A program made the translations under genes and the position numbers. Of a stretch of DNA of 64,000 nt, positions 38,806-55,396 are shown in pieces. Below the pieces are notes generated by a model. The model saw nothing but the letters and a program-made list of their open reading frames with translations. It did not search any database and was not told the origin of the DNA. Source of the stretch: a virus; IMG/VR virus record IMGVR_UViG_3300033555_000005, positions 1,366 to 65,365 of that record; one strand, written 5' to 3'. Position 1 is the first letter of the stretch. The number at the start of each line of letters is the position of its first letter.

Positions 38806-39387
38806 CTACTTGCGGCGGTGCTCGGGGTGCGTGCTGGTCAGCACGTACCGCTGCATGTCGGGGCTGTCGTACAGCTCGTCGAAGCGGAGCTGACGACCGC
38901 TGATGCGCAGCGTGGTGTCGCGGTTGGACGCGTCGAAGTGCCCGCTGCTCTGGATCGTCTCGACGTCGAAGACACGTCCGCGGAAGGCGAAGCGGTTGTG
39001 CAGGTGCTTCTCACGGTTCTCGACGAGGTCGATGTCCAGCCCGGCGCGGCGGGCCTGGTCGTAGCTCAGGCGCAGCACGATGTTGTCCATGACCGCGAAG
39101 CCACCGTCACCGCCCTGCTCTTGGCCCTGCTGCACGACGGCCGACAGGACCGGGATGCGCCGAGGTCCGTCGAAGCGCTTGCCGCCCTCGATGTGCCCCT
39201 CGTCGTAGATGTCGTCGGTGGTCGTGCCGACGCCGTCGGCGAAGTTCTCGTCGAGGAACCACCAGTCGACCTCGGTGCCGTACACCTGCTGGTGCAGCTC
39301 GAGGCCGCGGTCGATGCGCTCCAGCTCGTCCTTGGTCGAGAAGAAGCGACCCCGCGGGCGGCCGAAGAAGCGTGAGGTGCCGGCCAT
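38806..39387 (-). CDS. neck/head-closure protein (gp14-like)
   Basis: VYGTEVDWWFLD, DDIYDEG, HNRFAFRGRVFDV; synteny. Confidence 0.65.
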   Translation of the reverse strand: MAGTSRFFGRPRGRFFSTKDELERIDRGLELHQQVYGTEVDWWFLDENFADGVGTTTDDIYDEGHIEGGKRFDGPRRIPVLSAVVQQGQEQGGDGGFAVMDNIVLRLSYDQARRAGLDIDLVENREKHLHNRFAFRGRVFDVETIQSSGHFDASNRDTTLRISGRQLRFDELYDSPDMQRYVLTSTHPEHRRK

Positions 39388-39830
39388 CAGCCGTGCTTCG
39401 CAGCCCAGGCAGCGCCCTCGGGCGAGAGCGCCTGCGGTCCGCTGTGCTGCAGGCCGGGGCGCAGGTCACGCGCGTGGTCAAGCATGGCCTTGCCGAAGCC
39501 CTTGCGCTGCATGTTCTTGCTGACCTGGGCCTTGTAGATGGCCGAGCGCGTTGCGTCTGGGCTGCCCTGAGGGTGGGGGGTACCTGTGTACTCGCCGTTG
39601 CGGTTGGTGCTCGGGTCGAACCAGTCGACGTAGCCGATGCGACGACCGCTGTTGGTGTGAACGGCCTCGACGCCCTTGGCGTACTTCGGGTTGGTGCCGG
39701 TCTCGGGCTTGCCGAACAGGCCGATAGGTCGGGTCGTGTACTTGCCGCCGAGTCCGAAGGTGCGTGGCGCGAGGTGCTGGCTGCTGCCGAGGTGGCTCAC
39801 GCCGGCGTCGAAGCTCTCGTTGCGGCTCAC
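39387..39830 (-). CDS. GNAT-family acetyltransferase 1
   Basis: AQVSKNMQRKGFGKAMLD acetyl-CoA motif A; LSPEGAAWA. Confidence 0.75.
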   Translation of the reverse strand: MSRNESFDAGVSHLGSSQHLAPRTFGLGGKYTTRPIGLFGKPETGTNPKYAKGVEAVHTNSGRRIGYVDWFDPSTNRNGEYTGTPHPQGSPDATRSAIYKAQVSKNMQRKGFGKAMLDHARDLRPGLQHSGPQALSPEGAAWAAKHG

Positions 39831-40996
39831 GGCCCGTCGTCCCCGTAGTTGGCGCGTCCGTCGCGCTGCACGAAGCCGCTGCCGGTGATGCCCAGGTTCC
39901 GAGGCGCGAAGACGCGTAGCGGGGCGGTGGGTGAGCGGTCGTCGTACTCGCGCGCGACGTAGACCGGCACGAGCCGGCCGGTGGTGAGCGACACGCGGCG
40001 CACGGTGAAGACCTCGATCTTGGACAGCCCGACGCCGAGCTGACGGCAGAGGTCGTCGTAGATGGTGCGCTTCTCAGCGATCAGCTCGCCGAGGTTGCGG
40101 AAGCGTTCGCTGCGCGGGAGCGACGTGCCGTCCGCGGTCGTGACGTCGATGTCGTAGGCCGCGTCGGTGCGCACGACCTCCAGCGCCTCAGTGGCGGCCA
40201 GCAGTGCGACAGCGTGGTGTTCGACTGGACCGATGCTGTCGACCGTCGCGTTGCTGTAGAGGAAGCGCTTGAAGCCGCGCGCGTCCCGGTAGACCTGCAG
40301 GTCTTCGCTGCTGTGCGCGTGCTTCAGAGCCGCGCTGCGCACGAAGGTGTTCAGCTCCAGGTCGGTGAAGAACTGGTAGTGCTGGCCGGTCACCGTGACG
40401 ATGGCGTCGTTGACCGGCGGGGTGCCCATGAGCAGCACGCCGGCGCGCGCGTCAAGCGTGTAGGCGGTCGTCGGGACCGGCGCGCTGTACCCGCCGCCAG
40501 GCAGCTCGGTCGCGACGACGACGGACAGCGACTCGGGTCGGACGACCTCAGCCGGCAGGTCGAAGCGTCGCGTGAAGCCGTCACCCTGCACCGCGGCCTG
40601 GAAGGTCTCCTCGAAGTCACCCAGCTCGAGGCGCAGCCGGTCACGGATGGCGCGGAGCGCGGGGCTGTCGGGATCCGGCACAGGGTCGTGCGCCGGCGGC
40701 CGCGGAGGCGGGGAGGCGGGGAGGCCGTTGATGACGAAGGGGCCAGCGAGGTTCTGGCTGCTGATGTTGTCGAGCGTTCCGAGCACCGGCAGGTAGGTGC
40801 CGTCCGGCAGGAGGTTCGGGATCGTGATGGTGACGCTGCCACCGTGGTCGACGATGAAGTCGACGCTGAACAGCTTTCCCAAGCTGTCGACGAGGAACGC
40901 GGAGCTGACGCGGCCGAAGCCGCTACCGATGAGCTGCAGCGTGCCGGCCCGGACTGCCGGCCCGCCGTACCCGGTGATGACGGGTGTGAGGGCCAT
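39827..40996 (-). CDS. head-tail adaptor with N-terminal Ig/IPT-like domain
   Basis: AIRDRLRLELGD, YQFFTDLEL..FVRSA, AATEALEVVRTDAAYDIDV...DG..LPRSERFRNL. Confidence 0.7.
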   Translation of the reverse strand: MALTPVITGYGGPAVRAGTLQLIGSGFGRVSSAFLVDSLGKLFSVDFIVDHGGSVTITIPNLLPDGTYLPVLGTLDNISSQNLAGPFVINGLPASPPPRPPAHDPVPDPDSPALRAIRDRLRLELGDFEETFQAAVQGDGFTRRFDLPAEVVRPESLSVVVATELPGGGYSAPVPTTAYTLDARAGVLLMGTPPVNDAIVTVTGQHYQFFTDLELNTFVRSAALKHAHSSEDLQVYRDARGFKRFLYSNATVDSIGPVEHHAVALLAATEALEVVRTDAAYDIDVTTADGTSLPRSERFRNLGELIAEKRTIYDDLCRQLGVGLSKIEVFTVRRVSLTTGRLVPVYVAREYDDRSPTAPLRVFAPRNLGITGSGFVQRDGRANYGDDGP

Positions 40997-40998
40997 GG

Positions 40999-41760
40999 TC
41001 AGCCTCCTCTGGTCGCCAGCATCGTACGAGCGGGTCGGCTGCTTGCTGGTGAGTCCGTCAGCGCGGTGCGCAGCGGCTGCATCGCGCGGGCCGGCGCGGG
41101 GCGCATGCTCGACGCCCCGTCACGAGCCGCGCGAGTGCTAGCGGGGGTCAGCAGCAGGCCGGACGTGCGGCGCGCTGCACGGGCCGACGAGGTCAGCGCC
41201 CCGAAGGTGCCCGGCGACAGGACGTACGGCAGCATCTCCCACAGCAGGCTGACCGCGTCGATGGCGAGGGCGTAGTCCAGCCACCGCAGTGGCCGCTCGG
41301 AGAAGACGTTGCCGAGCAGGGACCACAGCACGCGCTGCTCTTGAGCAGCCAGTGCGTAGATGGTCCAGGGCGCTGTCCGGCTCTGCTGCGCTAGGACGAG
41401 GAGCGCCCAGTCCGAGGTGCGCTGAGAGCTGCGGGTGACGGTGTCGTTCCACAGGAGCGGCAGGTGCTTCGACGTGCCGGCGATGTAGTCCGCACGGTCA
41501 AGCAGAGACGGAAGCAGCGCGCTCGGCACGCGCACGTAGGCGACTCGCAAGGTCGTTGTAGACGTCAGCGAGGCCAACTCGGTGCTTGCGGTGCGACGGC
41601 TCTCGTACCGAGGTGAGCCGGCGTCGACGGGCACGCTGATGACCGCGCTGACCGTCCTCTCGTACCGCCTGCTGATCGGGCCGCGAACGGTCAGGTAGGG
41701 GTCGTATTGCGACGGGATTTGCACCAGAGGTGCGCGGAGCCAGAGGTCGTAGTCACCCAT
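40999..41760 (-). CDS. hypothetical virion-associated protein
   Basis: coupled ORF in structural operon; atypical codon usage. Confidence 0.5.
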   Translation of the reverse strand: MGDYDLWLRAPLVQIPSQYDPYLTVRGPISRRYERTVSAVISVPVDAGSPRYESRRTASTELASLTSTTTLRVAYVRVPSALLPSLLDRADYIAGTSKHLPLLWNDTVTRSSQRTSDWALLVLAQQSRTAPWTIYALAAQEQRVLWSLLGNVFSERPLRWLDYALAIDAVSLLWEMLPYVLSPGTFGALTSSARAARRTSGLLLTPASTRAARDGASSMRPAPARAMQPLRTALTDSPASSRPARTMLATRGG

Positions 41761-43211
41761 CAGAGCACCGTGAGGTTGCGCTCCGAAACCGCCTCGAGAG
41801 GCGACAGCGAGTCCTGCTCAGCGAAGGCCGCGACGTAGTACTTGCGCAGGTCGTAGCTGTTGCGCGGGAACGAGTACCCGCCGGTGACTGTCGAGCTGGT
41901 TGTACTGGACACCGGGGTGTCGTTGTCGGCGCGGTAGAGAACGATGAAGGCACCGCCCAAGTAGGGCGTGCCGTTGACGTCGCGGATGACTCCGCTGATG
42001 GACTTCACCGGGTCGAGCAGCGGCTCGTCGCCTGGCTGGAACTGGTAGTCCACACGTCGGCCAGCTGTGAACAGCCTCGCGGCCGCCTCCTGCAGCACGC
42101 GCAGCTCGTCGGAGCTGACGCGGCTGACGGTGACCGTTCGCTGCGCGATGTCGGCCGGTCGGGGCAGCGCGTCGCTGGACCCTCGGGGGAACAGGACGAT
42201 GCGCACCGCGGTGTCCGCGGGGCCGCCCAGCGCGTCCGCGCCGCGCCGCGGGAAGAGCGCGGTCCGTGACGCCGAGTCCGTGGGCGTAGGAATCTGGTCA
42301 GTCGGCAGTCGGGCAACAGCGATGGCGCGTGTCGTGCTGTCGAGTAACGACGAGAGGATGTCGGCTGCCCGGCGCGCCACCGTGACGACGCGAGCGGAGG
42401 TATCGACCGGAGGCGGAACAGTGTCGAGAGGCAGCCGGGCCGTCACAGTCTGCCGCGCCGATGCGTCCAGCAGTTTGGGCACGATGTCGCTAGAGACGCG
42501 AGCCGCCTGAGTCTCGCGGCGCGAGGTGTCCAAGGGGCGGGGCAGTGCTTCGGCCGACAGCCGGAAGTACGCAGCAGCTCGAACCGCGGTGTCGACGGGC
42601 CGAGAAATGACGTCGGTGGACGTGCGGCTGGCTCGTACGGAGAAGGAAGTGAGGTCCGCGAGTCGTGAGTCCACACCTCCGGTCTGAAGGCTGATGTTGA
42701 CTCCGTTGAGGTTGACGCCGCCCACCGTGACCAACGCGTACGCCTCGACGAACAGCTTCGGGTTCGGTCCGGTGGTGAAGGCAGCGACGGTCACCGGGAC
42801 CGACATGACCGTCAGGGCCGTCGGGAGCGTGCCCAACGCCGTCATGGCGTTGCCTGCTAACACGGAAGTGCCGTTGCTGCTGCGCACGTAGACGTAGACC
42901 GCGAGCTGCCCGGTGACAGCAGCGGTGTCACACAGGACGTTGAGGTGCACCGTCCAGGTGCCCCCCGCGAACGCGACGGGATCCGGGCTGACAGCCGCTA
43001 GCTGCTCCCACCCGATGGGTGCAGCCCCTGGAACCGCCGCGTCGGCGCTGCTCGACACCTCAGGCACGAAGCGCCGGTTGCCGGTGCCGGCGCTGGCGTA
43101 GCTCGCCTTGGTTGCGACGCTGGCTGCGGTGCCACTCGCGCCAAGCTCGTGGACGTCGCCGGCGACGACCGTGCTGCGCAGGAACTGGGTGGGAGGGATG
43201 CCGCTCATCAA
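41760..43211 (-). CDS. fibrous virion protein with nine 21-aa repeats
   Basis: central R-x3-D-x6-D-x3-R-x5 repeat; C-terminal ISGVIRDVNG...YRAD..PVSSTTS...YSF prealbumin-like module. Confidence 0.75.
   Translation of the reverse strand: MMSGIPPTQFLRSTVVAGDVHELGASGTAASVATKASYASAGTGNRRFVPEVSSSADAAVPGAAPIGWEQLAAVSPDPVAFAGGTWTVHLNVLCDTAAVTGQLAVYVYVRSSNGTSVLAGNAMTALGTLPTALTVMSVPVTVAAFTTGPNPKLFVEAYALVTVGGVNLNGVNISLQTGGVDSRLADLTSFSVRASRTSTDVISRPVDTAVRAAAYFRLSAEALPRPLDTSRRETQAARVSSDIVPKLLDASARQTVTARLPLDTVPPPVDTSARVVTVARRAADILSSLLDSTTRAIAVARLPTDQIPTPTDSASRTALFPRRGADALGGPADTAVRIVLFPRGSSDALPRPADIAQRTVTVSRVSSDELRVLQEAAARLFTAGRRVDYQFQPGDEPLLDPVKSISGVIRDVNGTPYLGGAFIVLYRADNDTPVSSTTSSTVTGGYSFPRNSYDLRKYYVAAFAEQDSLSPLEAVSERNLTVL
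42060..42626 (-). repeat. 9 x 63-nt (21-aa) protein-level tandem repeat
   Basis: RTSTDVISRPVDTAVRAAAYF / RLSAEALPRPLDTSRRETQAA / RVSSDIVPKLLDASARQTVTA etc., no indels. Confidence 0.9.
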
Positions 43212-43218
43212 GCCTCCC

Positions 43219-43521
43219 TTAGAGCAGCGTCTCGAGGTAGTCGTAGCAGGCGACCTGACTCACCATCAGCGCGGCAAGTGCCGCGGCCGGGTCTCCCGTC
43301 GTACGGTGCCCGATGTCGCTGCGTCCGACGCTGTTGCACGCGCTGACGTTCGTCGTCGTGGTCGGGTCGTGATGCAAGATCAGCGCGTTCACCAAACCAC
43401 CGCCCGCCAGTGGCGCTTCGTACCGGAGGGACACCGCCTTCGGCGCAACGAGCACCGTGAGCTTCGTCCGCACGGTGACACCGTCTGCGAGGTAGTCGAC
43501 GCCGCATGACCGATCAGCCAC
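43219..43521 (-). CDS. hypothetical protein (100 aa)
   Basis: ORF fills gap in structural operon. Confidence 0.55.
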   Translation of the reverse strand: MADRSCGVDYLADGVTVRTKLTVLVAPKAVSLRYEAPLAGGGLVNALILHHDPTTTTNVSACNSVGRSDIGHRTTGDPAAALAALMVSQVACYDYLETLL

Positions 43522-43525
43522 GGCT

Positions 43526-43963
43526 CTACGTGCCCAGGTCGATGCTCACGGTCTGGTCGAGCGAGTCGGTGCCGGTCAGCGTCGGCGGGTTCGGCTGCGG
43601 CATCGCGAAGACCAAGATGCCTGTGTCAGCCGCTCCTGGCGCGGCCGCTACGGCCGGCGCGATGACACCCACGATCCGAGGGGTGCGCGCCGTGCCCGTG
43701 CCAGCCGGGGAGGTGTGCGTGAACTTCTTGAACAGCGTGCCAGTCTGCGCGCCGGCGTTCTTGGTCACCGTAGTGGCCAGCGCGCGAGCGAAGCCGTCTG
43801 CGGTCATCTCGTTGCCCGCCACGCCGCCCAGCACCGTCCAGGTGTTCGGAGACGGGATGGCCGTAGCTGACTCCGACAGCGCGATGACCGTCGAGGCGGT
43901 CGGCCGGGTCGTGTTGAAGTGGGCGTCCCAGGTGTAGTCGCGTCCGACAGTGGTACGGCTCAC
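43526..43963 (-). CDS. putative virion structural protein
   Basis: IALSE...LGGVAGNEMTADGFARALAT...LFKKFT; GTGA coupling. Confidence 0.7.
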   Translation of the reverse strand: MSRTTVGRDYTWDAHFNTTRPTASTVIALSESATAIPSPNTWTVLGGVAGNEMTADGFARALATTVTKNAGAQTGTLFKKFTHTSPAGTGTARTPRIVGVIAPAVAAAPGAADTGILVFAMPQPNPPTLTGTDSLDQTVSIDLGT

Positions 43964-44388
43964 GTCTGCTCCTCGATGACCTCGGTGTCGAGCAGCGCCG
44001 CGATGCGGCGCACAAGCCTGGGGTCGTCGCCGGACACGCCGGTCAGAGCGTGTACCGGCACGTTGCGCTCGGTCACCGACCGCAGGAAGGCGGCCAGCTC
44101 GGTCGGGTCGGGTGCCCAGCCGTCCTCGTACGAGGTCACGGCGTTGCCGACGTCGACGCTCTCGATGCGGTGACGCATTTCGGTCTCGCCCGTCGCCATG
44201 GCCGCGACCGGGAAGACGCCGGTGGACTCGTAGACCTTGCCGTCGCTGTGCAGAACGTTGCTGTCCTTCGCCGCCTGACGGCGCTCGTTGGCGTTGAGGT
44301 TGAAGCGCTCGACAGCCTTCTCGTCAGCCGAGAGGTCGTTGACGAGGTCGTAGCCCTTGCTGAGGTGAAAGACGATCTGCTTGCTCAT
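43960..44388 (-). CDS. hypothetical virion-associated protein
   Basis: ATGA/GTGA coupled, strong codon bias. Confidence 0.7.
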   Translation of the reverse strand: MSKQIVFHLSKGYDLVNDLSADEKAVERFNLNANERRQAAKDSNVLHSDGKVYESTGVFPVAAMATGETEMRHRIESVDVGNAVTSYEDGWAPDPTELAAFLRSVTERNVPVHALTGVSGDDPRLVRRIAALLDTEVIEEQT

Positions 44389-44930
44389 GCCGCCGTGTCT
44401 CCTTCAACGCGAAGCGTCACGCCGTCGTTGTTCTGGGCCGGCGTGTTCTTGGCCGTGCGGCGCACCCAGATGGCGATGACGCTGCCGGGCGCGATGTCGC
44501 CGATGGCCAGCCCGGTGGCCTTGGTCGTCGGGCTCCCGAACGCCGTCGTGCCAGTCGGGGCGGTGTTCTTGTTCGCGATCTGCGCGGCCTGCGCGCCAGG
44601 TCCCTGACCGACAGGCACGACGCCGATGTTGTCGAGCGCGATGGCGGTGTCAGCGCCGCCGGCGACCTCGGTCGCGAGCCAGATGACAGTGCGCTGCAGC
44701 ACCAGCGTCGGGTGCGCGTTGTGCACGAAGATGCACTTGTAGTCCAGGTTCTGCGCCGCGTTCTCGTCGCCCGTGACGTCGGGGAAGAGGTTGTTGAGCA
44801 CGGCGTCGGTGAGCTGCGTCGTCGAGATGAAACGGCCGTTCGAGCCAGCTGCCGTGCCCACCGTCGTGTTGCCGGTGGTGCCGGTCGTCACGCTGTACTT
44901 GTACTGGATGTCCGAAGACTGGATGGGCAT
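44385..44930 (-). CDS. putative virion structural protein
   Basis: LNNLFPDVTGDENAA..LDYKCIFVHNAH conserved-looking motif. Confidence 0.7.
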   Translation of the reverse strand: MPIQSSDIQYKYSVTTGTTGNTTVGTAAGSNGRFISTTQLTDAVLNNLFPDVTGDENAAQNLDYKCIFVHNAHPTLVLQRTVIWLATEVAGGADTAIALDNIGVVPVGQGPGAQAAQIANKNTAPTGTTAFGSPTTKATGLAIGDIAPGSVIAIWVRRTAKNTPAQNNDGVTLRVEGDTAA

Positions 44931-44975
44931 GGCAGCTGGCTCCTTGGGGTCGCTGGTGGTGAGGCTAGAGCGACG

Positions 44976-45521: not shown

Positions 45522-45594
45522 GTCGTTCTCCTTGTTCGGTGTCCGAGTGCGCTGACGCGCTGTCCCGCCAAGGAGTGTGACGTGTGCGTGCGAG

Positions 45595-46071: not shown

Positions 46072-46090
46072 GGCGAGCAGTCTGCATGCA

Positions 46091-46119
46091 GAAGGCCCGC
46101 CTCCAAGGGAGACGGGCCT
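46091..46119 (-). terminator. stem-loop terminator
   Basis: AGGCCCG...CGGGCCT; near-identical to hairpin at 58317. Confidence 0.65.
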
Positions 46120-46134
46120 GGTGCAGGTGGAGAG

Positions 46135-46503
46135 CTACGCGGCCTTGCGCCCTCCGCGAGCACGCATCGTCGCGCCGCCCTCTGTCGCCAAGGTGCGCAC
46201 GGTCGTCGGGCTCAGGTCGTACACCTGAGCCAGCTCGTTGAGCGACGCGCCGGCCTTGTACTCCTTGGCGATCTTCTTCGAGAGCTTCGGGCGCTCGGGG
46301 TCAGCCTTGCGGTTCGCACCGCCGCGGGTCCTGATCTTCACGCCCATCTCGAGCAGCAGCAGCCGAACGCGACCGGCGCTCGTGCCGTGCTTGTCAGCCA
46401 ACCTGCCCAGCGACCACTTCCCGGTGATGTAGTCCTTCTCCAGCTTCGCGCCGAGCTTGTCGCGCTCGTCGTCCGTCATTCTCTTGTGCTTCGTGATCGT
46501 CAT
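46135..46503 (-). CDS. tandem helix-turn-helix DNA-binding regulator
   Basis: two copies of Y..G.SL..LA...G/D.S...VR.LL.E.G...R.RGG. Confidence 0.85.
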   Translation of the reverse strand: MTITKHKRMTDDERDKLGAKLEKDYITGKWSLGRLADKHGTSAGRVRLLLLEMGVKIRTRGGANRKADPERPKLSKKIAKEYKAGASLNELAQVYDLSPTTVRTLATEGGATMRARGGRKAA

Positions 46504-46508
46504 GTTGG

Positions 46509-46543
46509 GGAACGTAGCAGAATCTGATCTAGGTGCAGTGCAA
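46509..46543 (-). promoter_or_regulatory. promoter for leaderless HTH transcript
   Basis: (T/C)TGCAC...TGC-TACGTT; 12-bp exact match to 2277-2288; -10 box ends 7 nt before ATG, no RBS. Confidence 0.7.
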
Positions 46544-46558
46544 CGCCGAAAGGCGCTG

Positions 46559-46951
46559 TCATCTTGAAGAGCGTGGCTTTCGCAACGTGCCGATCTTCGC
46601 TCTGCCGGTGTACCGGTCCGGTCGGTCCCCCTCATGGACTAGAGCCGACACGGGCCTCTTGAGCAGTTCCGCTGCAGTCAGGCGGTGATGCCCGTCTGCC
46701 GTGAGCGTCTCTCCACCGCGCCGAGCCAGGAGAACAGGGGGCACGTCCGCGCCGTCGCGGTAGCCCTGCATGGCTGACTGCACGCGCGCATCAGACTCTG
46801 GGTACCGCTGGAACCGCACCCTCGAGGGGTGGATGTCCTCCTTGCTGACCCGCATGGGAGCACCAGGCTCTCCATCGTTCACCAGCTCGTTGACAGCGTG
46901 GTGGAGGTAGACGTCGCCTCCGAACTGCTCGCCCAGCACGCGAAGGCTCAT
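46559..46951 (-). CDS. stand-alone ParB/Srx-domain protein 1
   Basis: VPPVLL...TADGHHRLTAA; N-terminal LGEQF. Confidence 0.82.
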   Translation of the reverse strand: MSLRVLGEQFGGDVYLHHAVNELVNDGEPGAPMRVSKEDIHPSRVRFQRYPESDARVQSAMQGYRDGADVPPVLLARRGGETLTADGHHRLTAAELLKRPVSALVHEGDRPDRYTGRAKIGTLRKPRSSR

Positions 46952-46970
46952 GTTCGGGATGCTCCCACGC

Positions 46971-47021: not shown

Positions 47022-47999
47022 CTAGTTGGTCTCGGCCACCACGACGGCGTTGTCCGTGATGAGACCGAAGCCCCAGATGGCGTACCAGGCGAGGGCGTGC
47101 TCACGACCGAAGTCGAGGATGCCGCCGTCGCGCAGCTCCACCGGGAGGCTGATGGCGTGGCCGAAGGCGTTGTCGCCCATGAAGATGGCCTGGTAGACGT
47201 CCGGGCCGGTCGTGACCTTGCGGACCTGAGTCGTCTCGATGAAGACGACGTCGTTGATCCGGCCGATCTCGCCGAGCATGAAGTTGCCGGGAGCGGCGTA
47301 CTTCGAGACCTCGAAGAACTCGGGGTCGTCCCGCAGACGACGGGACTGGTGCGGGTGCACGAAGCAGACGTAGGTCTCGCCGAGGCGCGGGACGTTCTTG
47401 GTGGCGAGCGTCTCGACGGCGTCCTTGATGACGGCCATGGTCATGTGGAACTGGCCGGTCAGGCCCGCCCGGTTGGCCGCCGGCGTGCCGTCGGCGTACG
47501 GGTTGTAGCTGGCGTTCGTCGACAGCTGCGGGTTGGAGTACCCGAAGATGATGGACGACGCCGTGAGGATGGTGTCGCGGGCGCTGCCGTCGAGGTACAG
47601 CGCCATGTTGCGGCCGAGCAGACGCGAGGCGCTGGCCATGACGTCGTCGAACGACGCGTTGAGCAGCAGCTCGGAGACGGCGACGGCGTAGCCCTGCTCC
47701 GCGACGGTGATCTGGTACTGCGAGGCGCTCAGCGCGTTCGTCTGCATGCGCACGCCCTCGACGAGCTGCGAGGCGCTGCCGAGGTTGTTGTAGCGCATGA
47801 AGTTGATCGTGAGACCGGGCTGGACGCCCAGCTCGGTCTTCTTCACCGCGAACTGCTCGAAGCGCAGGATCGGCATCGACTGGAAGAGGATCTCCTTCGA
47901 CCAGATGGACTGGATCGCCGGACCGAGCTGCGAGTTGGCACCCGCGTAGGCCGTGGGGGACGCCGAGAGGTACGGCGTACCGGTGATGGCATTCGCCAT
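47022..47999 (-). CDS. major capsid protein, N4-gp56 family
   Basis: 325 aa; LRFEQFA, GLTINFMRY, YVCFVHPHQSRRLRDD, GEIGRINDVVFIET, DFGREHALAWYAIWGFG. Confidence 0.93.
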   Translation of the reverse strand: MANAITGTPYLSASPTAYAGANSQLGPAIQSIWSKEILFQSMPILRFEQFAVKKTELGVQPGLTINFMRYNNLGSASQLVEGVRMQTNALSASQYQITVAEQGYAVAVSELLLNASFDDVMASASRLLGRNMALYLDGSARDTILTASSIIFGYSNPQLSTNASYNPYADGTPAANRAGLTGQFHMTMAVIKDAVETLATKNVPRLGETYVCFVHPHQSRRLRDDPEFFEVSKYAAPGNFMLGEIGRINDVVFIETTQVRKVTTGPDVYQAIFMGDNAFGHAISLPVELRDGGILDFGREHALAWYAIWGFGLITDNAVVVAETN

Positions 48000-48041
48000 G
48001 TGGGACTTCTCCTTCTGCTTGTCGTGGGTGCCCGGCTGGGT

Positions 48042-48887
48042 CTAGCCGAACATCCCGCGGTCACGCTGCTGCTGCGAAGCAGCGCCCAGCAGCCGGCCCC
48101 GGTTCTGTGCGTACGTCGTCATGTCCATGCCGCGAATGTCATCGGCGCTGACCGTTTCGTATCCCGAGTTGTTGTCCATTGGCCCCACTGGCGGTGCAGT
48201 GACACCGACACCCCGAGCGCCCTGGCGGGCGCTCTGGGTAGCCGAGGCCACCTGCTGGAGGATAGAGGCGCTGCGCGAGACCATCGCGGAGACCGCGGAG
48301 TCCAGCTCGGCCTCGTTGTTGCCGGCGACGAGGTCGCGCAGCTCAGGCAGGATGTCGTTGCCGTGCTGCTCCAGGAGCTGGCCGCGGTAGGCCATCAGCT
48401 CGTTGAACTGCCGCTCCTTGGCCAGGATGGCGTCGCGCTCGGCGAGCTGCTGCTGCAGCGTCTGCACCTGGCTGAGGGTCTGCTGCTGGTACTCCTCGAG
48501 CTTCTGCCCGAAGCTCAGCTCGGCGAGGCGCTTCTCCTCCGAGGCGTTCGCCGCGGCCAGCTCGGCGGCAGCCTGTGACTCCTGGCGGGCGGTGAGGTCG
48601 GTGGTGAACGCACCCATCTGGTCCTCGAGCTTCCTGCGCGCGGTCGCCTCGGCCTCGATCCGCTCGTAGAGCTTGTCCTTCTCCTGCTGACGCGCCGCCT
48701 CGACCTGCTCGGCCGTGAACATCTGGACGGTCGGGGCTGCCACGACGGGCGGCGCGGTCGGGATGACGATGCTCGTCGGGTCGCCGACGGGGGTCGACAT
48801 GGTCGCGTCCCCGACGATGCTGCGGTGCAGAGCCAGCAGGCCCTTGATGTCGCCGCGCTGCAGGAGCGCGATGGCGAGCTTGTCCAC
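48042..48887 (-). CDS. capsid scaffolding protein
   Basis: Q/E-rich coiled coil immediately upstream of MCP; C-terminal DIRGMDMTTYAQNR. Confidence 0.82.
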   Translation of the reverse strand: MDKLAIALLQRGDIKGLLALHRSIVGDATMSTPVGDPTSIVIPTAPPVVAAPTVQMFTAEQVEAARQQEKDKLYERIEAEATARRKLEDQMGAFTTDLTARQESQAAAELAAANASEEKRLAELSFGQKLEEYQQQTLSQVQTLQQQLAERDAILAKERQFNELMAYRGQLLEQHGNDILPELRDLVAGNNEAELDSAVSAMVSRSASILQQVASATQSARQGARGVGVTAPPVGPMDNNSGYETVSADDIRGMDMTTYAQNRGRLLGAASQQQRDRGMFG

Positions 48888-48982
48888 GGTGTTGCCTCCG
48901 GTGTCGTTGTCCTAGTGCCGCGCGAGTGCGCAGCTGTCCCGTTGGACATCCTGGAGTCACCGAGGTCGGACCTCGCGGAGAG

Positions 48983-49759
48983 CTAGCGGACGGTGCTGAA
49001 CTCGACGTCGAGCTTGTGCGCCGGCATGAGCGCGCGACGTGCCGACGTCGTCGGGTCACGGTGGAAGTCCGCGATGTCGTGGCCCTCGAACTGGCTGCTC
49101 TGCATGAGCGTGTAGCCGGGCTGCCGGACGTAGTGGTCAGTCTCCGAGACCGACTTGCCGGTGAAGAGGTTCAGCTGGTCCGGGTCACGGTGGTCCGGCG
49201 CGTTGTAGCGGTTGTCGTGCGCGTCCTTGGTCTCGTTGAACGGACGAGGTACGTGCGGCGGCTTCACGACGCCGCTCTGGTCCTGCATGTAGCTGTGGTT
49301 GAAGTCCTGGTTGGACGCCGTGTGCCGCGGTGACGTCGAGGACGGAGCCTTGAAGGCGTTCCAGTTGATCTTGGGGAACGTGCCTGTCTCGCCGACGCGG
49401 GCATGGATGGCGCGCTTGATGCCGTAGCCGGTTTCGCTCTGGATCTCTCCGTACTTGCCGCCTTCCTGGTACTGGTCGTGCGCAGGCTCGACTTCGTACA
49501 CCCGGCTGCGGTAGCGCGGGTCGGGGTCGTGGTTCTCGGGGTGCGCCATGGACCGTGACCCGGTGTTGATGGCGTAGCTCCACGCCTCTTCCTCGCCGTG
49601 CGTGGCGAAGGCCATGTCAGTGTGCGCCGGCTTGCCGGCTCCCGAGCTGAAGCCTCGCGACGACAGCGCGTCCGCGCCGGTGTGCGACGACGGTCGGATG
49701 TGCGTGTCGTCGATCTGCCGCGGGGTGCCGTGGAACTGCTTGCGCTGAAGGTTTCTCAC
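48983..49759 (-). CDS. ADP-ribosyltransferase-like protein (Arr-type)
   Basis: FHGT, AFAT...AWSYA, RVYEVEP, GEIQS motifs; GTGA coupled to portal stop. Confidence 0.68.
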   Translation of the reverse strand: MRNLQRKQFHGTPRQIDDTHIRPSSHTGADALSSRGFSSGAGKPAHTDMAFATHGEEEAWSYAINTGSRSMAHPENHDPDPRYRSRVYEVEPAHDQYQEGGKYGEIQSETGYGIKRAIHARVGETGTFPKINWNAFKAPSSTSPRHTASNQDFNHSYMQDQSGVVKPPHVPRPFNETKDAHDNRYNAPDHRDPDQLNLFTGKSVSETDHYVRQPGYTLMQSSQFEGHDIADFHRDPTTSARRALMPAHKLDVEFSTVR

Positions 49760-51534
49760 GTCGTGTTGTCCACGTCCGTCGCAGGCCGGCGGCGGCCGGC
49801 GACAGTGGTTCCGTACGCGCGGGTGTTCAGGCGGGTCATCAGCGCCTGCGTGTCGCCGCTCATCGCCATGACCGCCGAGGCGGTTCCTGCGGTGCTGCCG
49901 GCCGTGACGTCCGGGCCGCCGGCGCTGACCTGCTCCGGGCCGCCGCCGCCGGCCATGCCTGCGACCGGGGGAGCGAAGGGCTGCGGCGCGCCGGGTACGA
50001 ACTGGCCGGTCTCTGCCTGCACGAGCGCGCTGATCTGGCTCTTGAGCATGTCAAGCGCGCCCTGGTTGATGGCGTCCTCGACCAGCTCCAGGAACGTCTC
50101 GCGCAGCTTCTCGTCGGGGAACACCTCGCCCAGCTCCTCCAGTGCGTCCTTCTTTGACACCAAGCCCATCTGCATCTTGAGCATAACCTCGTTGAGGATG
50201 ACGGTCTTGTCCACAGGCAGCGGCGGTGGCCAGTGGATGACCGACACGAAGCTGACAGGGTCGTCGACGTCGAGCAGCGGCTGCTGGTACGCCTTCAGCT
50301 CCTCGTTCGCCTCAGGGGACCACTGCAGTGCGAGCGGCTCCTTCATCGCCAGCGTCATGAGAGCGATCTCGTTGATCTTCTCGAGCATGCGGCCGTACGT
50401 CATCTTCTTGTGGTTGTAGCGCTGCATCATCGGCTGGTACTGGATGGCCAGCGCGACGCCGCTGGTGTTGCTGATCGGCTGCACGTCACCGAGCGCGCCC
50501 TCGGGCACACCGGTCAGCTCGTGCATGGCCTTCTTCAGCAGCTCGAGGTACTGGATGCCGGCCTGGACGCCGCCACCGCCCAGCTCGAGGTTGAAGACGT
50601 TGGCGTCCTTCGGCAGGCCGCCCCACATCTTCTTCGCGCCGCGCTCGAGCTGGCTGCTCTTCGCGCCCGTCATCACGGTCACCGGCGCGGCGTGGTAGTT
50701 GACGATGTCGGAGACGTCAGTCGCCTTCTCGTTGTACTCCCGGTTCAGCGTGGTGATGTCGTTGATGTCGGACAGGCCCCACGGACTGCCGGACACCATG
50801 ATGTTCGGAGCGAAGGCGATGGGGATGATGCCGAGCGGGTTCGGGCGCGCGTCGATGAGCTGGTCGTTGATGTACTCCTCGATGTACCCGTCCGTAAGCA
50901 GCTCGGTGTAGGTGAACACCTGCCGGGTGCCCTCAGGCGTCGTTCCCCAGAAGCGGTACTTCAGCTTGAACCGGAGGAGTCGCTGCTTGTCGTGCGGGTG
51001 GAACTCGGGGAAGCAGTAGCTGCTGTTGAGCGGGATGATGCGCAGCTTGCCAGGCATGAAGCGCTGCAGCACGCCGGGGATCGGCGCGCCGGCCTGGTCG
51101 ACGCCGGTGTAGTACGGCTCCTCGTAGGCGACCTTCGCGAAGACGTCTCCGCTCACCGACCCTTGGTTGCCCAGCTCCCAGAGCAGCGAGTCCTTGTGGT
51201 TGTCCAGCTCCCACACGCGCTCGAGCAGCGACGGAACGATGTGCTCGGTCTCCTTCGGCGAGCGGAAGTTGACCCCGCGGCCGAACGTGAAGTTCGTGAT
51301 GAAGTCGGAGAACGCCTTGCAGTAGTTGAAGGTGAGCTGCGGCTCGCCCGGCTCCCGGCGGTAGCTCCAGTGGTGGCCGAGGTAGAAGGCCCAGTTGTGC
51401 GCGTACCTGTTCAGCCGAGGACCGTGCACCTCGAACTCCTCGTCGGCAAGCTCGACCAACCCCATGGGTGAGATGGCGATGGTCAGGTCGCTGCCGGACG
51501 CGCGGTGCGAAGGGCTGTCGAAGCTGATGGTCAC
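49756..51534 (-). CDS. portal protein (SPP1 gp6-like)
   Basis: 592 aa; FNYCKAF, VSGDVFAKV, PWGLSDINDI..LNREYN, SNTSGVALAIQYQP. Confidence 0.92.
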   Translation of the reverse strand: MTISFDSPSHRASGSDLTIAISPMGLVELADEEFEVHGPRLNRYAHNWAFYLGHHWSYRREPGEPQLTFNYCKAFSDFITNFTFGRGVNFRSPKETEHIVPSLLERVWELDNHKDSLLWELGNQGSVSGDVFAKVAYEEPYYTGVDQAGAPIPGVLQRFMPGKLRIIPLNSSYCFPEFHPHDKQRLLRFKLKYRFWGTTPEGTRQVFTYTELLTDGYIEEYINDQLIDARPNPLGIIPIAFAPNIMVSGSPWGLSDINDITTLNREYNEKATDVSDIVNYHAAPVTVMTGAKSSQLERGAKKMWGGLPKDANVFNLELGGGGVQAGIQYLELLKKAMHELTGVPEGALGDVQPISNTSGVALAIQYQPMMQRYNHKKMTYGRMLEKINEIALMTLAMKEPLALQWSPEANEELKAYQQPLLDVDDPVSFVSVIHWPPPLPVDKTVILNEVMLKMQMGLVSKKDALEELGEVFPDEKLRETFLELVEDAINQGALDMLKSQISALVQAETGQFVPGAPQPFAPPVAGMAGGGGPEQVSAGGPDVTAGSTAGTASAVMAMSGDTQALMTRLNTRAYGTTVAGRRRPATDVDNTT

Positions 51535-51587
51535 GCGGGTGCTCCTAGTCCTGGGCCGTCGTGCTGCTCAGGGGGAGTCTCCCCGGA

Positions 51588-51818
51588 TCAGTCCAGGGGT
51601 ACGGCGAGAGCGAGCTGCATCCCGGTCTCGGTCTCCTCGTACTGGAGCGCAAAGCTGCCCTCAGCCGGAAGGTCTGCCGTGCCACCGGCAGTCATGAAGG
51701 TCAGGCACTGGACGCCCTCGACGGTGGTCCAGGAAACCAGTGCGTCCAAGAGCTGCACGCCCTCTGGCAGGTCGAGCGCGTACTCCAGCAGCTCGCGCGT
51801 CACGCGGATGGTGGCCAT
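51588..51818 (-). CDS. hypothetical protein (76 aa)
   Basis: ORF between ParB gene and portal; MATIRVTRELLEYALDLP. Confidence 0.6.
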   Translation of the reverse strand: MATIRVTRELLEYALDLPEGVQLLDALVSWTTVEGVQCLTFMTAGGTADLPAEGSFALQYEETETGMQLALAVPLD

Positions 51819-51859
51819 GCTGTTACCCCGAGTAGTTGGTCTGAAAAGTTGAGCGTAGC

Positions 51860-52417
51860 TCAGACTCCGTGGAGGTCCCGCGCCTTCATGCCGAAGCCGA
51901 CCTCGGCGTCCATGTCGACGTGGTCGACCTTGATGGGCTTGCCGGCGGCGCGGGCGGCCGCGACGCGGTGGTGACCGTCGACGAGGACGTCCTTGCCGCG
52001 GATGCGCATGACCCGCGGGCGCGTGGGGCCGGACCCCGGCAGCCGGGAGCTGGCACGCGCCGTCTCGCGCTCGGTCTGCAGGGTGTGCAGTGGGTGGTTG
52101 GGCTGCAGCTCGCGGACCTCCGCGCCTGCCCAGTGCTCCTCGCCGCGGAGCTTGTACGCCTGCTTCGTCGTCGCCGTGTTGTCTCGGATGAAGCCGTGCG
52201 CCTCAACGTGCGCGCTTGGCTCGTCGTTGAAGTGGACGTTGCGGGGGTCGACCTCGCGGCCGCGGAAGCGCTGAGGCTCGTCGTAGGTCAGCACGCCCTG
52301 GCCAGGTGCGTGCTGCTGCACCGCGCCGTGGAAGTGCTCCGCGCGGCCGCCGGCGGCCTGCTTGCGCGCCGACGAGTGCAGCAGGCTCTCCATGCCGGGG
52401 AGCGGCAGCTGCCTCAC
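51860..52417 (-). CDS. stand-alone ParB/Srx-domain protein 2
   Basis: RPRVMR...VLVDGHHRVAAA; GTGA coupling. Confidence 0.82.
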   Translation of the reverse strand: MRQLPLPGMESLLHSSARKQAAGGRAEHFHGAVQQHAPGQGVLTYDEPQRFRGREVDPRNVHFNDEPSAHVEAHGFIRDNTATTKQAYKLRGEEHWAGAEVRELQPNHPLHTLQTERETARASSRLPGSGPTRPRVMRIRGKDVLVDGHHRVAAARAAGKPIKVDHVDMDAEVGFGMKARDLHGV

Positions 52418-52809
52418 CGGAACTGCTCCCTGTACATCCGCGTCGCCTCGTCGAAGACGTGATGCCGGCCGGGGTGAGCCGCCTGCAGGCGCGGCAGCAT
52501 GCGCTGGGCGTCGTGGGACATGCCGTCGACCGTGTGCGTCATCGGCAGGTCGGGGTGCTCCTTCAACGCAGCTCCGTGCAGCGCCGTCGCGACGCCCTTG
52601 CCGCGGTGGTCCTCGTCGACGGTCAGGCTGTCGGGGTAGAGCGTGCGCTCGGGGAAGTAGCTCTCGTTGACGTGGTAGGTCAGGTCGCCCACTGCACGAC
52701 CGCGGTGGAACGCCTGCACGCGGCCCTCGATGCGTCCGTCGTCCCCCACCTCGTGCTCGGTCTTGACGCGCAGGTTGCTGACGGGGTCACGGCGCTGACG
52801 CATCTTCAC
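52414..52809 (-). CDS. GNAT-family acetyltransferase 2
   Basis: LTVDEDHRGKGVATALH; C-terminal REQFR. Confidence 0.8.
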   Translation of the reverse strand: MKMRQRRDPVSNLRVKTEHEVGDDGRIEGRVQAFHRGRAVGDLTYHVNESYFPERTLYPDSLTVDEDHRGKGVATALHGAALKEHPDLPMTHTVDGMSHDAQRMLPRLQAAHPGRHHVFDEATRMYREQFR

Positions 52810-53138
52810 GGCCGGCGGCCAAGCGTGCGGTTCAGCGCCTTGCCGGCGTCGCTCGCGTGCGCGGAGTGCTGGATGGTCACGCTCGGCCAGCGACGAGACA
52901 CCTCGGCGTACATGGCGGTCGCCACTCCTCTGCGCTGGTGCTCCTCCTTGACCCACACGTTGGGGTGCGCACGAGGCGCGGCGTCCCCGTCGTGCAGTCG
53001 CTGGTAGACCGACAGCCCCCCGATGGTCTTCCCCTCGTGCTGGGCCTTGACGTGCATCGCCGGGAGGCCCCAGTGCGTCTGCGGCTCGTGCTGCACCTCG
53101 ATGGTGTAGTCGTCGAACTGCCGGCCGAGCGCGCTCAC
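52806..53138 (-). CDS. GNAT-family acetyltransferase 3
   Basis: VWVKEEHQRRGVATAMY, SDAGKAL; N-terminal MSALGRQF. Confidence 0.82.
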   Translation of the reverse strand: MSALGRQFDDYTIEVQHEPQTHWGLPAMHVKAQHEGKTIGGLSVYQRLHDGDAAPRAHPNVWVKEEHQRRGVATAMYAEVSRRWPSVTIQHSAHASDAGKALNRTLGRRP

Positions 53139-53857
53139 GGCGTGAGGAACTGGCGTCCCAGCGCCCGGTGCAAGCTGCGACGGCCGATGGCCTGAGCGCT
53201 GCTGCCGAGCGTCACGATCTTCTGCTCAGCGAACTCGCCCGGCGCGAGCCCGCCGAAGTTGTTGACGCTGTTCTGCCCGCGGGTCTCGGTGGTCATCGCC
53301 GGCCGCGCCTGGCGGCTGAACATCTGGCTGTGCGAGCGCCAGGCCGCCTCCTCGCCGTCCGCGCTGAAGTTCCGTCCGGTGCCGCCGTGGCCGAAGGTGT
53401 CGTGCACCGCTCGGAACATGTCGTTCTCGTCGTTGGTGAAGAACGGGTGCGCACCGGTGACCGCGGTAGGGAGCACCTTGATGCGGTTGTTCTCGTGCAG
53501 GTCGCGCATCATCGCCTTGCTGTTCGGCGCGCCTGTGCTGGTGACGTACGGGTCGCTGCTGGCCTTCTCGACGCTGATGCCCATGCCGCCCTGGTGCTGG
53601 GGCTTGGTCATGAAGTCGTACTGCCGGCCGACCTCCTCGCGCATCGCCTTGAAGTGGGGCAGCGCCGCGTCGTCGTGCATCGGGGCGGCCGCGTAGGCGC
53701 GCGCGACGTGATGCGCGACGACGGGGTCGACGGCGACGCGGGAGAAGTCGCGGTTGCTGCTCGGCCCCATGCCGGTCAGCGCGCGGTACCGGGCGATGCC
53801 CTGCGCCACGGCGGGCACCGGGCCACTGCCTACGACGAAGTGCTCCATGCGGCTCAT
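53135..53857 (-). CDS. HDxxGH-motif protein (zincin-like metal-binding candidate)
   Basis: NDMFRAVHDTFGHG...GEEAAWRSH...TETRGQNS; C-terminal LGRQF. Confidence 0.6.
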   Translation of the reverse strand: MSRMEHFVVGSGPVPAVAQGIARYRALTGMGPSSNRDFSRVAVDPVVAHHVARAYAAAPMHDDAALPHFKAMREEVGRQYDFMTKPQHQGGMGISVEKASSDPYVTSTGAPNSKAMMRDLHENNRIKVLPTAVTGAHPFFTNDENDMFRAVHDTFGHGGTGRNFSADGEEAAWRSHSQMFSRQARPAMTTETRGQNSVNNFGGLAPGEFAEQKIVTLGSSAQAIGRRSLHRALGRQFLTP

Positions 53858-54249
53858 CAGCGTGCCCTCTCGTTCCAGAGCAGCACGTTGACGTGCTTCT
53901 CGCCGTTGATCAACGCGTTCGCGATGCGGTGGTGGCCGTCCACGATGCGGTAGCGGCCCTTCGTGTCCTTGATGACGCCGGGTGCTTGCTGGTCGTGGTT
54001 TGGGGCGTGAAGCGTGCCTTGGTCCACGATCCCCTGCGTCGGTCGCAGCGCAGACGTCTTCACGCGGGCGGTCTTCGGGTTGTACTGCGAGACCAACCGG
54101 TACTCGTGGTTGCTCTTCTCGATCTGCGGGTGCGGGAAGACGTCACCCACCGGCACAGTCTCGTGGCCCTTCGCCGGGAAGGCGGGAGCCTCCATGCCGG
54201 GGAACGGGGGCTGGTAGACGCCCCTGCCGAAGTGCGCCGTGCGGCTCAC
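53857..54249 (-). CDS. stand-alone ParB/Srx-domain protein 3
   Basis: LRPTQ, PGVIK..GRYRIVDGHHRIANA; GTGA/TGATG coupling. Confidence 0.82.
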   Translation of the reverse strand: MSRTAHFGRGVYQPPFPGMEAPAFPAKGHETVPVGDVFPHPQIEKSNHEYRLVSQYNPKTARVKTSALRPTQGIVDQGTLHAPNHDQQAPGVIKDTKGRYRIVDGHHRIANALINGEKHVNVLLWNERAR

Positions 54250-54602
54250 AGCTTGCGCACTTGGCCGATGTCGTTGTGGTTCCAGCGGACCGGGTCTGAG
54301 CTGACGAGCGGCTTGCCGTCCCACGTCATCGTGTCACCGTGCAGATGCACGCCGGCCTTGTCTACGCGGAACACGCGGCCAGTGGCCACGCCGGAAGCGC
54401 CCTTGCCGGCCATCAGCCGGTCGTGGACCGTCTCGCCCTCCTTGCCGATGGCCAGCCGAACGTGGTCACCTGCCTGCAGCTCGTGGCTCTCGATGTGGCC
54501 AGAGTGCCGCGGCAGCTGTCCAGCTTCGGCTGCGAAGTGCTCGCTGCGCGTGGTTGGCTCAGCGGCCTGTCGCATGCGCGCCTTGCGGGGGAGGTTGCTC
54601 AT
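54246..54602 (-). CDS. His-rich hypothetical protein (118 aa, MSNLPRK...)
   Basis: ATGA coupled to peptidase; LQAGDHVRL SH3/KOW-like strand. Confidence 0.65.
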   Translation of the reverse strand: MSNLPRKARMRQAAEPTTRSEHFAAEAGQLPRHSGHIESHELQAGDHVRLAIGKEGETVHDRLMAGKGASGVATGRVFRVDKAGVHLHGDTMTWDGKPLVSSDPVRWNHNDIGQVRKL

Positions 54603-55396
54603 CGGACGACGACCGCGCCTTCGCCACCCTGGTGCAGCAGCCAGTCGAGGTCGTCGAGCAGCACGTAGACCATGCCGCCGGGCCGGCCGAGGTCGGCGAC
54701 GCCGTAGTCCTCGCCCCAGCTCTGCTGGATGACGGCGACCTCCTTGGTGCCGGTCCACTCGCCGGGCATCCGCATCTTCAGCCGCACCGCAGGGCTGTAG
54801 ACGCAGTGGCCACCGGACTGCGCGCTCGCGCGGTCGACCTCCACCAGACCGCTGGGGTGGGGGCTGAACATGCTCTCGAGCCACGGCAAGCCGTAGACGA
54901 CCCCGCCGACTGCCCTGTTGCCCCGCACGACGTCGCCGATGGCGTCGCCGCTGCCGGCCCCGACCCACCAGAAGCTGCTCCACCAGCCGTGGTCGCGGCC
55001 GTAGACCATCCCGCTGTGCACCGAGGTGCCGCCGTAGTCCGGGCCGGCCTCACGAGGGCACTGGCTGCCCCAGTCGCAGCCGGGCCAGGGGTCGAGGTGC
55101 TGCACGTCGTGGTAGGCCAGCGCCATCGCCTGCTGGTCGGTGTGCGCCGGCTTCAGGCGCTTCGGGGCGCTGTTCCGGCGGTGCGTCATGCCGTAGAGCA
55201 CGCACTGGCCCTCGAGGCCCTGGTCCATGCCAGGTCCCGGCTTCCAGCTGCGAGTGGCCCGCGGCGCGTTCTGGGGCACCTCCGTCATCAGGCGCTCGAC
55301 GGTGTACGCCCGGTTCGACTCCGGGAAGTAGGGGACTCGGTCGAGCCGCGGGTCCAACGCGACGAGGCCGTTCTTCAGCTGGCGCGGCTCGGTCAT
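54599..55396 (-). CDS. papain-like cysteine peptidase (C1-type)
   Basis: DQGLEGQC (oxyanion Gln, catalytic Cys), GGHC (His), QQSWG (NSWG-equivalent), GGTS. Confidence 0.85.
   Translation of the reverse strand: MTEPRQLKNGLVALDPRLDRVPYFPESNRAYTVERLMTEVPQNAPRATRSWKPGPGMDQGLEGQCVLYGMTHRRNSAPKRLKPAHTDQQAMALAYHDVQHLDPWPGCDWGSQCPREAGPDYGGTSVHSGMVYGRDHGWWSSFWWVGAGSGDAIGDVVRGNRAVGGVVYGLPWLESMFSPHPSGLVEVDRASAQSGGHCVYSPAVRLKMRMPGEWTGTKEVAVIQQSWGEDYGVADLGRPGGMVYVLLDDLDWLLHQGGEGAVVVR

Follow-up and report, generated by a model that had tools for sequence, protein, structure and literature searches.

Small enzyme genes between the head-assembly genes of a BRock-like actinobacterial myovirus, and a terminal peptide shared by unrelated mini-proteins

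Why are small enzymes encoded between the genes that build a phage head? The question is raised by a 64,000-nucleotide stretch of DNA (the window) that makes up nearly all of a linear 65.5-kb IMG/VR virus record (IMGVR_UViG_3300033555_000005; GC 68%, CheckV completeness 66%). This window represents the late operon for structural proteins of a BRock-like myovirus of actinobacteria, uncultivated and of soil type, and about nine small enzyme genes sit between its head-assembly genes on the minus strand. A preliminary description had listed eight of them, with GNAT, ParB/Srx, ADP-ribosyltransferase (ART) and HDxxGH motifs, and had proposed that their products are loaded into the prohead and delivered with the DNA. 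Four of the small proteins carry a short shared terminal peptide (the tag), and in related phages dozens of small proteins with nothing else in common begin with it.

Small late genes and their shared terminal peptide

The eight open reading frames (ORFs) were all found at their coordinates on the minus strand, among the terminase, portal, scaffold, capsid and neck genes, with a coding-like GC content at third codon positions (GC3) of 0.75-0.95. They are given here together with one newly recognized small gene (genes are named by their lower coordinate; L and G numbers are our handles for loci):

39387..39830, minus strand: basic protein of 147 aa, with only a stretch resembling GNAT motif A; coupled to the genes on either side
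46559..46951, minus strand: mini ParB/Srx protein (DGHHR) with the N-terminal tag MSLRVLGEQF (46922-46951); phrog_1033 3.6e-5
48983..49759, minus strand: Arr-like ART, N-terminal ~125 aa plus a conserved C-terminal extension; GTGA-coupled to the portal gene
51860..52417, minus strand: mini ParB/Srx protein (DGHHR) with an N-terminal QLPLPGME motif; 70% identical homologue in L027
52414..52809, minus strand: mini-GNAT 2, 131 aa; Acetyltransf_1 25.9 bits (cut-off 20.7)
52806..53138, minus strand: mini-GNAT 1, 110 aa, with the N-terminal tag MSALGRQF (53115-53138); Acetyltransf_1 25.0 bits (cut-off 20.7)
53135..53857, minus strand: HDxxGH protein of a virus-only family; phrog_3170 2e-43; C-terminal ALGRQF tag copy at 53147..53164
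53857..54195, minus strand: mini ParB/Srx protein (DGHHR), revised start, 112 aa; ParBc_2 E 0.013, phrog_1033 E 0.005
54246..54602, minus strand: new 118-aa His-rich protein (9 His/118 aa), ATGA-coupled to the peptidase gene; codon-position GC 0.71/0.48/0.84

The reported GTGA, ATGA and TGATG overlaps with neighboring genes were borne out for seven of the eight genes. From the overlaps with head genes we infer that the small enzymes would be co-transcribed and translationally coupled with head proteins, and would thus be late products. The count of 11 histidines in the 131 residues of 52414-52809 was likewise correct. The eight small proteins contain 4.6-8.4% His and have isoelectric points (pI) of mostly 9.6-10.5, compared with 0.4-2% His and a pI of ~5 for the structural proteins. 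The earlier gene map stood as to coordinates and needed revision in two respects: the start of 53857 is most likely the ATG at 54195, and three small genes had been overlooked. The longest 53857 ORF reaches 54324, and the in-frame GC3 of 54196-54324 is only 0.65. The space freed by these non-coding-like first 43 codons is filled by the gene at 54246-54602, the product of which had no family match.

Translated in six frames, the record contains LG[RE]QF three times, always at a protein terminus: the C-terminus of 53135 and the N-termini of 52806 and 46559. With the N-terminus of 48983, MRNLQRKQF (49733-49759), which is looser than the LG[RE]QF form, four window proteins carry the tag, either as N-terminal M-S-(A)-x-x-x-L-[SG]-x(1,2)-Q-[FW] or as C-terminal ALGRQF. 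The C-terminal placement recurs in the HDxxGH family. Five proteins of the 70-kb contig L035 (two mini-ARTs, one mini-GNAT, one mini-ParB/Srx protein and one uncharacterized protein) start with M-x-A-x-[DE]-[NH]-L-S-x-x-Q-F, and the tag also heads genes of the terminase-portal gap in L005, L014, L020, L028 and L030.

IMG/VR was searched for the tag with a degenerate DNA pattern for MSAxDNLSPxQF, using a composition-matched scramble as control. The pattern returned 27 sites, on contigs of 39-66% GC, and 27/27 were true starts of ORFs of 81-181 aa; the scramble returned 1. Low-GC contigs contain about five to a dozen tagged genes in tandem, with the variants MSAxDNLSPxQF, MSNLNPxQF and MSAQDNLGRQW. 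Four tag-bearing genomes were long enough to be tested, and each of them encodes the capsid family of the window (59-79% by tblastn, 64-81% with a second tool); their GC is 44-66%, and their head gene order is the same as in the window.

The codons of the tag vary synonymously and the upstream DNA is not conserved, indicating selection on the peptide itself. A direct-repeat search found no cassette boundaries at the DNA level. On these three grounds, ALGRQF as a recombination or RNA-level signal was rejected. Also rejected were a tagged start in LuckySocke and BRock ('MSAANLExLGRQF'), as the match lies inside a minor tail protein gene, and tag-like matches on antisense ORFs in L010 and L023, which are due to chance. 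No gene family, as a candidate partner, was common to the low-GC and high-GC tag loci. A literature search on the tag peptide found nothing, and the peptide was not met in searches within PMC5512222 and PMC9503650. Judged by sequence comparison, the new part of this locus is the portable terminal peptide, carried by unrelated mini-proteins across one capsid lineage. Apparent function at either terminus of unrelated enzymes suggests a typical docking signal.

Two tag cores, LSxxQ[FY] and LGEQF, were also seen in head proteins. The capsid protein contains an internal ALSASQY (LSxxQ[FY]), and LGEQF is found in the portals of relatives (L001 9694, L017 4606; LGEVF in the window portal). The resemblance may be fortuitous, or it may mimic a contact made by head proteins. 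Beside the tandem arrays, HslV-family peptidase and endolysin genes are present in 12 low-GC loci (among them L041 1479-2033, L046 3535-4089 and L057 5334-5882). The HslV-family peptidase is a candidate for the processing of the tag.

Enzyme families of the small proteins

The domain labels proposed earlier were sound for two GNATs and the HDxxGH protein, and the ART label was supported. The ParB/Srx assignments, weak for single sequences, gained support from a profile, and the GNAT label of 39387 is doubtful. Single-sequence searches of Pfam, NCBIfam and PDB were blank for five of the eight proteins.

The mini-GNATs 52806 and 52414 are paralogues (28% identity, E 3e-6). The possibility that they are halves of one split gene was rejected, since each of them covers the same central region of the profile. 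Homologues of mini-GNAT 1 were found at 64-79% identity, and this protein has a weak match to AAC(3)-I (E 0.011). An acetyl-CoA motif A (Q/R-x-x-G-x-G/A) was recognized by eye in all three GNAT-motif proteins, the lengths of which are only 110-147 aa. For 39387 the Acetyltransf_1 score of 12.4-12.7 bits (E 0.019 / 0.007) is under the cut-off of 20.7.

The HDxxGH protein belongs to a family with >340 metagenomic homologues of ~240 aa, none of them named, and its nearest ESM Atlas clusters are viral. The motif is HDxxGH, not the HExxH of the zincin-like metallopeptidases (MPTase) of polyvalent proteins. An AlphaFold2 (AF2) model with a predicted local distance difference test (pLDDT) score of 89 gave no match to a solved fold, the best Z being 3 or less, with several of these entries zincin-like. 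The HDxxGH domain is also part of gp205 of phage E3 (L003 5515-8091), which is annotated 'structural protein', a label that is unverified.

A second domain, DUF7178, accompanies HDxxGH repeatedly. The two are fused in E3 gp205, the HDxxGH gene adjoins a DUF7178 gene in cluster C mycobacteriophages (L004 6732-9912), and it lies one gene from a DUF7178 gene in L030 (6001-8203). These arrangements suggest a functional link between the two domains.

For the ART-like protein 48983, 13 homologues were found, and the HG[TA], [FS][AS]T and VYxV motifs are invariant across the 14 sequences. No Pfam Arr-ms match was obtained for 48983 itself. One ORF in the gap set that contains the L011 homologue (E 6e-14 to 48983), presumed to be that homologue, matches Arr-ms at 1.2e-4, and the Arr-ms matches of the L035 mini-ARTs are weak or faint. 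The AF2 model of 48983 is of moderate quality (pLDDT 62). Its top Foldseek matches were Arr structures (2hw2, 9iaf, 9iba; E 8e-3, probability 1.0), followed by lower matches to ARTs of the cholera-toxin, Tpt1 and PARP types. Arr-sized mini-ARTs of 118-128 aa occur among the relatives.

The C-terminal half of the 13 ART-like homologues contains a conserved QLNLF(T/S)GKTV (49163-49177), which reads QLDLYSGKTV in the distant L011; the Q is present in 14/14 sequences. QLNLF fits the bacterial sliding-clamp-binding consensus QL[SD]LF.

The DGHHR motif, of active-site type, is invariant in all three ParB/Srx-like window proteins and their relatives. Matches of the three single sequences were weak, Pfam ParB_N had no match in the record, and a protein atlas look-up for 51860 was uninformative (scores <=0.82). 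A profile of six mini-domains, searched against PDB, matched SbnI (3.7e-4), free serine kinase (1e-3) and ParB (0.054) over ~40 residues. The ParB/Srx minis also have a second N-terminal motif separate from the tag, Q-L-P-[ML]-[FP]-[MG]-[MT]. It reads QLPLPGME in the window (51860-52417, 53857-54324) and QLPMFMT in L035 2835, L038 1320 and L039 5023-5517.

The head operon and its counterparts in relatives

The minus strand carries every gene at 33-59 kb, in a late operon of myovirus type. The structural genes and the remaining small genes between them are:

56715..58301, minus strand: terminase large subunit (TerL); phrog_2 5e-25, 50-80% identity to the TerL of relatives
56260..56652, minus strand: conserved ~130-aa post-terminase protein, overlooked before; 77% identity to genes at the same position in L027 and L037
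54599..55396, minus strand: peptidase-like protein, heading the gene run; phrog_16701 'peptidase' 1.8e-13, papain-type motifs by eye
51594..51818, minus strand: conserved 74-aa pre-portal protein, overlooked before; genes immediately preceding the portal in L027, L028 and L037 are 43-51% identical
49756..51534, minus strand: portal protein; SPP1_portal 1.9e-16, phrog_64 8.6e-32
48042..48887, minus strand: scaffolding protein; homologous to LuckySocke 'scaffolding protein'
47022..47999, minus strand: major capsid protein; phrog_1357 1.8e-61
46135..46635, minus strand: HTH_58 DNA-binding protein, after the ParB-like gene; Pfam HTH_58 1.1e-22
33807-35495, minus strand: sheath, at the lower end of the neck and tail gene run

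The peptidase-like protein had no match in PDB or Pfam searches; homologues are present upstream of TerL in L008 and L009. The HTH_58 gene is present in the corresponding region of a 104-kb relative, and its product has a weak match to a small-terminase PHROG (phrog_1206, 2.8e-6). Promoter and terminator scans gave background levels.

The longest HTH_58 ORF overlaps the ParB/Srx mini gene by 77 nt in another frame (46135-46951). The pair resembles a split ParB-HTH protein, and an internal ATG is the probable start of the HTH gene. Elsewhere in the operon, the minus-strand ORF at 43208-43507 has a GC3 of only 0.49 and there is probably no gene in that frame; the plus-strand ORF at 43479-43937 has a coding-like GC3.

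By capsid identity, the nearest isolates are the Streptomyces phages BRock, LuckySocke, Alone3, GiJojo and pSt2308 (73-74%), and closer metagenomic relatives are L027, a 104-kb contig (94%), and L005 and L028 (93%). A megablast search with 10 kb against isolate phages gave no match. BRock and LuckySocke have terminase, portal, scaffold and capsid in common with the window; they have 0/8 of the small genes, and other small genes in the gap. Some head genes of relatives are interrupted or enlarged. The terminase gene of L028 (2317-5049) encodes 910 aa with a weak LAGLIDADG match and probably contains an intein, the portal matches in L025 and L026 are broken by ~0.9 kb, and an insertion of ~50 aa is seen in the capsid genes of G003 and G004.

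The synteny survey suggested in the preliminary description was positive, with the same families recurring in the terminase-portal gap or beside the portal gene. The HDxxGH protein is encoded in this gap in L005, L007, L009, L023, L027 (81% identity), L028 and L037, and in L027 the homologue of 51860 directly follows it. DGHHR minis are found in the gap of L005 (two), L009 and L027. GNATs occupy the gap of L024, which contains a relative of mini-GNAT 2, and those of L028 and L037, the latter keeping the 4-nt HDxxGH-GNAT overlap. The ART-like gene is found at the end of the portal gene in L027 and L028, where it overlaps the stop codon, and immediately ahead of the portal in L011 and L013. In L005, no homologue of 39387 is present between the homologues of its flanking genes. 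Endonuclease VII genes of homing type are also housed in the terminase-portal gap, along with further unrelated genes. In the nearest relatives, three of the eight genes (53135, 51860 and 48983) are thus long-term head-module residents; 52806 also keeps its place in L037, and the other four are patchy.

Possible roles of the tagged enzymes and known systems

The tagged mini-enzymes probably act in phage-host conflict, and loading into the head is the single most likely role of the tag, with a probability of roughly 0.35-0.4 as estimated from sequence. The plastic sites of the operon (the terminase-portal gap, the post-portal slot and two slots after capsid and neck genes) would hold a clade-wide pool of mini 'conflict' enzymes. 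This pool would comprise the Arr-like ART (NAD+), the mini-GNATs (acetyl-CoA), the metal-hydrolase-like HDxxGH protein and the mini ParB/Srx proteins, of nucleotide-binding, kinase, NTPase or nuclease type. The tag would dock on one conserved partner, most likely inside the procapsid (scaffold, capsid protein or portal). With T4 Alt and IPI-III as the model for head loading and delivery, the tagged enzymes would become internal head proteins, exit with the DNA and hit host or defense targets at the very start of the next infection. A more specific form of this proposal is doubtful: that BRock-like phages as a clade use MSA-x-[DE]-NLSP-x-QF and its variant NLGRQ[FW] as their capsid-loading address, recognized by the capsid, scaffold or portal protein containing LSxxQ[FY] or LGEQF. 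The untagged members (the second GNAT, two ParB-like proteins and 39387) may simply be late cytoplasmic enzymes.

Head loading is favored by the coupling to head genes, the recurrence of the families in the gap of relatives, the tag on unrelated proteins at either terminus, its link to one capsid lineage, the T4-like tandem arrays, the basic and His-rich composition, and the HDxxGH domain in E3 gp205. Several observations weigh against it. Only four of the nine or ten small proteins carry the tag. The tandem arrays adjoin endolysin, HslV-family peptidase and cobaltochelatase-like genes and not head genes, and in the four genomes sharing the capsid family no tagged gene falls within the 14-20 kb sampled on and around the head module. 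Tagged homologues were absent from the isolate phages searched, including BRock and LuckySocke, which have no tagged small genes. That the tag is conserved in a single phage clade would be equally expected of any partner specific to the clade or supplied by the host. Family searches recognized no known-type prohead protease, and no small terminase other than the HTH_58 candidate; a MuF domain had no match in the whole record at E up to 1. The idea that homologues would reside mainly in head modules held in part, as set out above, and in part did not, as close GNAT, HDxxGH and ART-like homologues are encoded elsewhere. The closest GNAT homologue (79%) lies amid thymidylate synthase, KTSC and Lsr2 genes, and the 64% one in a small-gene run. 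HDxxGH homologues (45-53%) stand beside RecA, WhiB and SpoVS genes and once beside a DUF7178 gene, and E3 gp205, with its unverified 'structural protein' label, has extra domains. For the ART-like protein, 52% identity is seen outside head modules, with the homologue P0124 following a VanY-domain gene.

Nearly as likely as head loading is a docking role in the cytoplasm. The small genes would then be unpackaged mobile accessory genes in permissive gaps, acting in the producing cell, for instance against defenses that sense portal, terminase or capsid, and the peptide would dock on a host hub or on a phage regulator, chaperone or modifying enzyme. The homologues and tag arrays outside head modules fit this arrangement, as do the endonuclease VII and unrelated genes in the gap and the HslV-family peptidase gene beside the arrays at 12 loci. 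The invariant, clamp-binding-like QLNLF of the ART-like family points to a cytoplasmic host target, and a passage of PMC9503650 offers the countering of immunity aimed at the packaging apparatus. On the other hand, the tag-bearing loci showed no partner gene shared by all of them; a motif for a host hub should not follow a single capsid lineage, as the tag does in the four genomes tested; and the tight ART-portal coupling is kept in three phages.

It is rather improbable that the enzymes modify small molecules, inactivating antibiotics or immune-signaling nucleotides by ADP-ribosylation, acetylation or phosphorylation, so that an infected actinobacterial cell stays productive in antibiotic-rich soil or a nucleotide-based defense is blunted. 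Such activities would agree with the rifampin ADP-ribosyltransferase Arr as the nearest solved fold of the ART and the Arr-sized mini-ARTs in relatives, with the small-molecule kinases SbnI and SerK as the nearest matches of the ParB/Srx profile, and with the weak AAC(3)-I match of GNAT 1 (E 0.011); PMC9503650, in part, notes Arr-family ARTs of actinophages and a reading of this kind. All these matches are weak and at the level of fold only, the shared terminal docking peptide is left unexplained, and the window ART has a 120-aa extension with a protein-docking-like motif. Least probable is a part in head assembly or DNA packaging, with the ParB-like proteins helping the terminase, HTH and ParB forming a small-terminase-like recognizer, the GNATs acetylating capsid and the peptidase serving as prohead protease. 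The position and coupling inside the head operon would accord with this, as would the weak small-terminase match of HTH_58, given that no other small terminase or prohead protease was recognized. However, BRock and LuckySocke lack all eight genes and still build the same head, presence among relatives is patchy, and homologues occur in non-structural regions.

If the tag is a loading signal, the proteins injected by a whole clade of ~100-kb actinobacterial phages, some of them relatives of Streptomyces phages, could be listed from sequence only. Mini-enzymes in tandem, up to a dozen per array, would become readable, and foreign proteins could be addressed into capsids. If the tag docks elsewhere, it still unites Arr-like ARTs, GNATs, ParB/Srx and HDxxGH proteins in a large family of tagged mini-enzymes that has apparently not been described.

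The general idea of packaged enzymes encoded beside head genes is not new. In parts of PMC5512222 and PMC9503650, head packaging is already predicted for GNAT and ParB genes that stand alone among late genes, and for ARTs beside terminase, portal and capsid genes. The packaging idea is therefore a known hypothesis (Iyer et al.) applied to a rich new case. The polyvalent proteins treated in parts of these papers likewise combine ART, GNAT, ParB/Srx and peptidase domains and adjoin portal, terminase or capsid genes; in contrast, the window has separate genes for proteins of 110-260 aa, and a DdrB-type identity is not shown for its ParB-like domains. Of the arsenal of polyvalent style that the preliminary description saw split into solo genes of the late head operon, the domain set stood; with one domain per gene, the two or more effector domains that mark a polyvalent protein are not found in a single polypeptide. 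In the Dar system of phage P1 (DarA, DarB, DdrA, DdrB, Hdf, Ulx), several separately encoded proteins enter each head, as is only proposed here; the P1 proteins are large, and no sequence relation to the window proteins was seen. According to a passage of PMC5512222, P1 DdrB carries a ParB/Srx domain.

With MuF (SPP1 gp7)-linked toxins the window shares an effector gene directly beside the portal gene, whereas the MuF domain is absent from the record. Encapsulin cargo-loading peptides offer an analogy only: a peptide at either terminus would bind inside an HK97-fold shell, without sequence likeness, and the shell of the window is a phage capsid filled with DNA. The ART resembles Arr in its best fold matches and in the HG[TA], [FS][AS]T and VYxVEP motifs; it differs in lacking an Arr-ms match and in having an extra conserved 120-aa C-terminal half with the invariant QLNLF.

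The internal proteins of T4 (IPI-III and Alt) also carry a short shared N-terminal peptide on unrelated small basic proteins, one of them an ART. In contrast, the window peptide is unrelated in sequence and can also be C-terminal, neither a prohead protease nor a cleavage site of T4 type was recognized, and the hosts are presumably actinobacteria. The T4-type hallmark, a short terminal peptide shared by unrelated proteins, is thus present here, as read from the genes alone. Tandem arrays of tagged genes, not necessarily beside head genes, are reminiscent of the capsid-targeting sequence of T4 and the variable ip loci that T-even phages carry.

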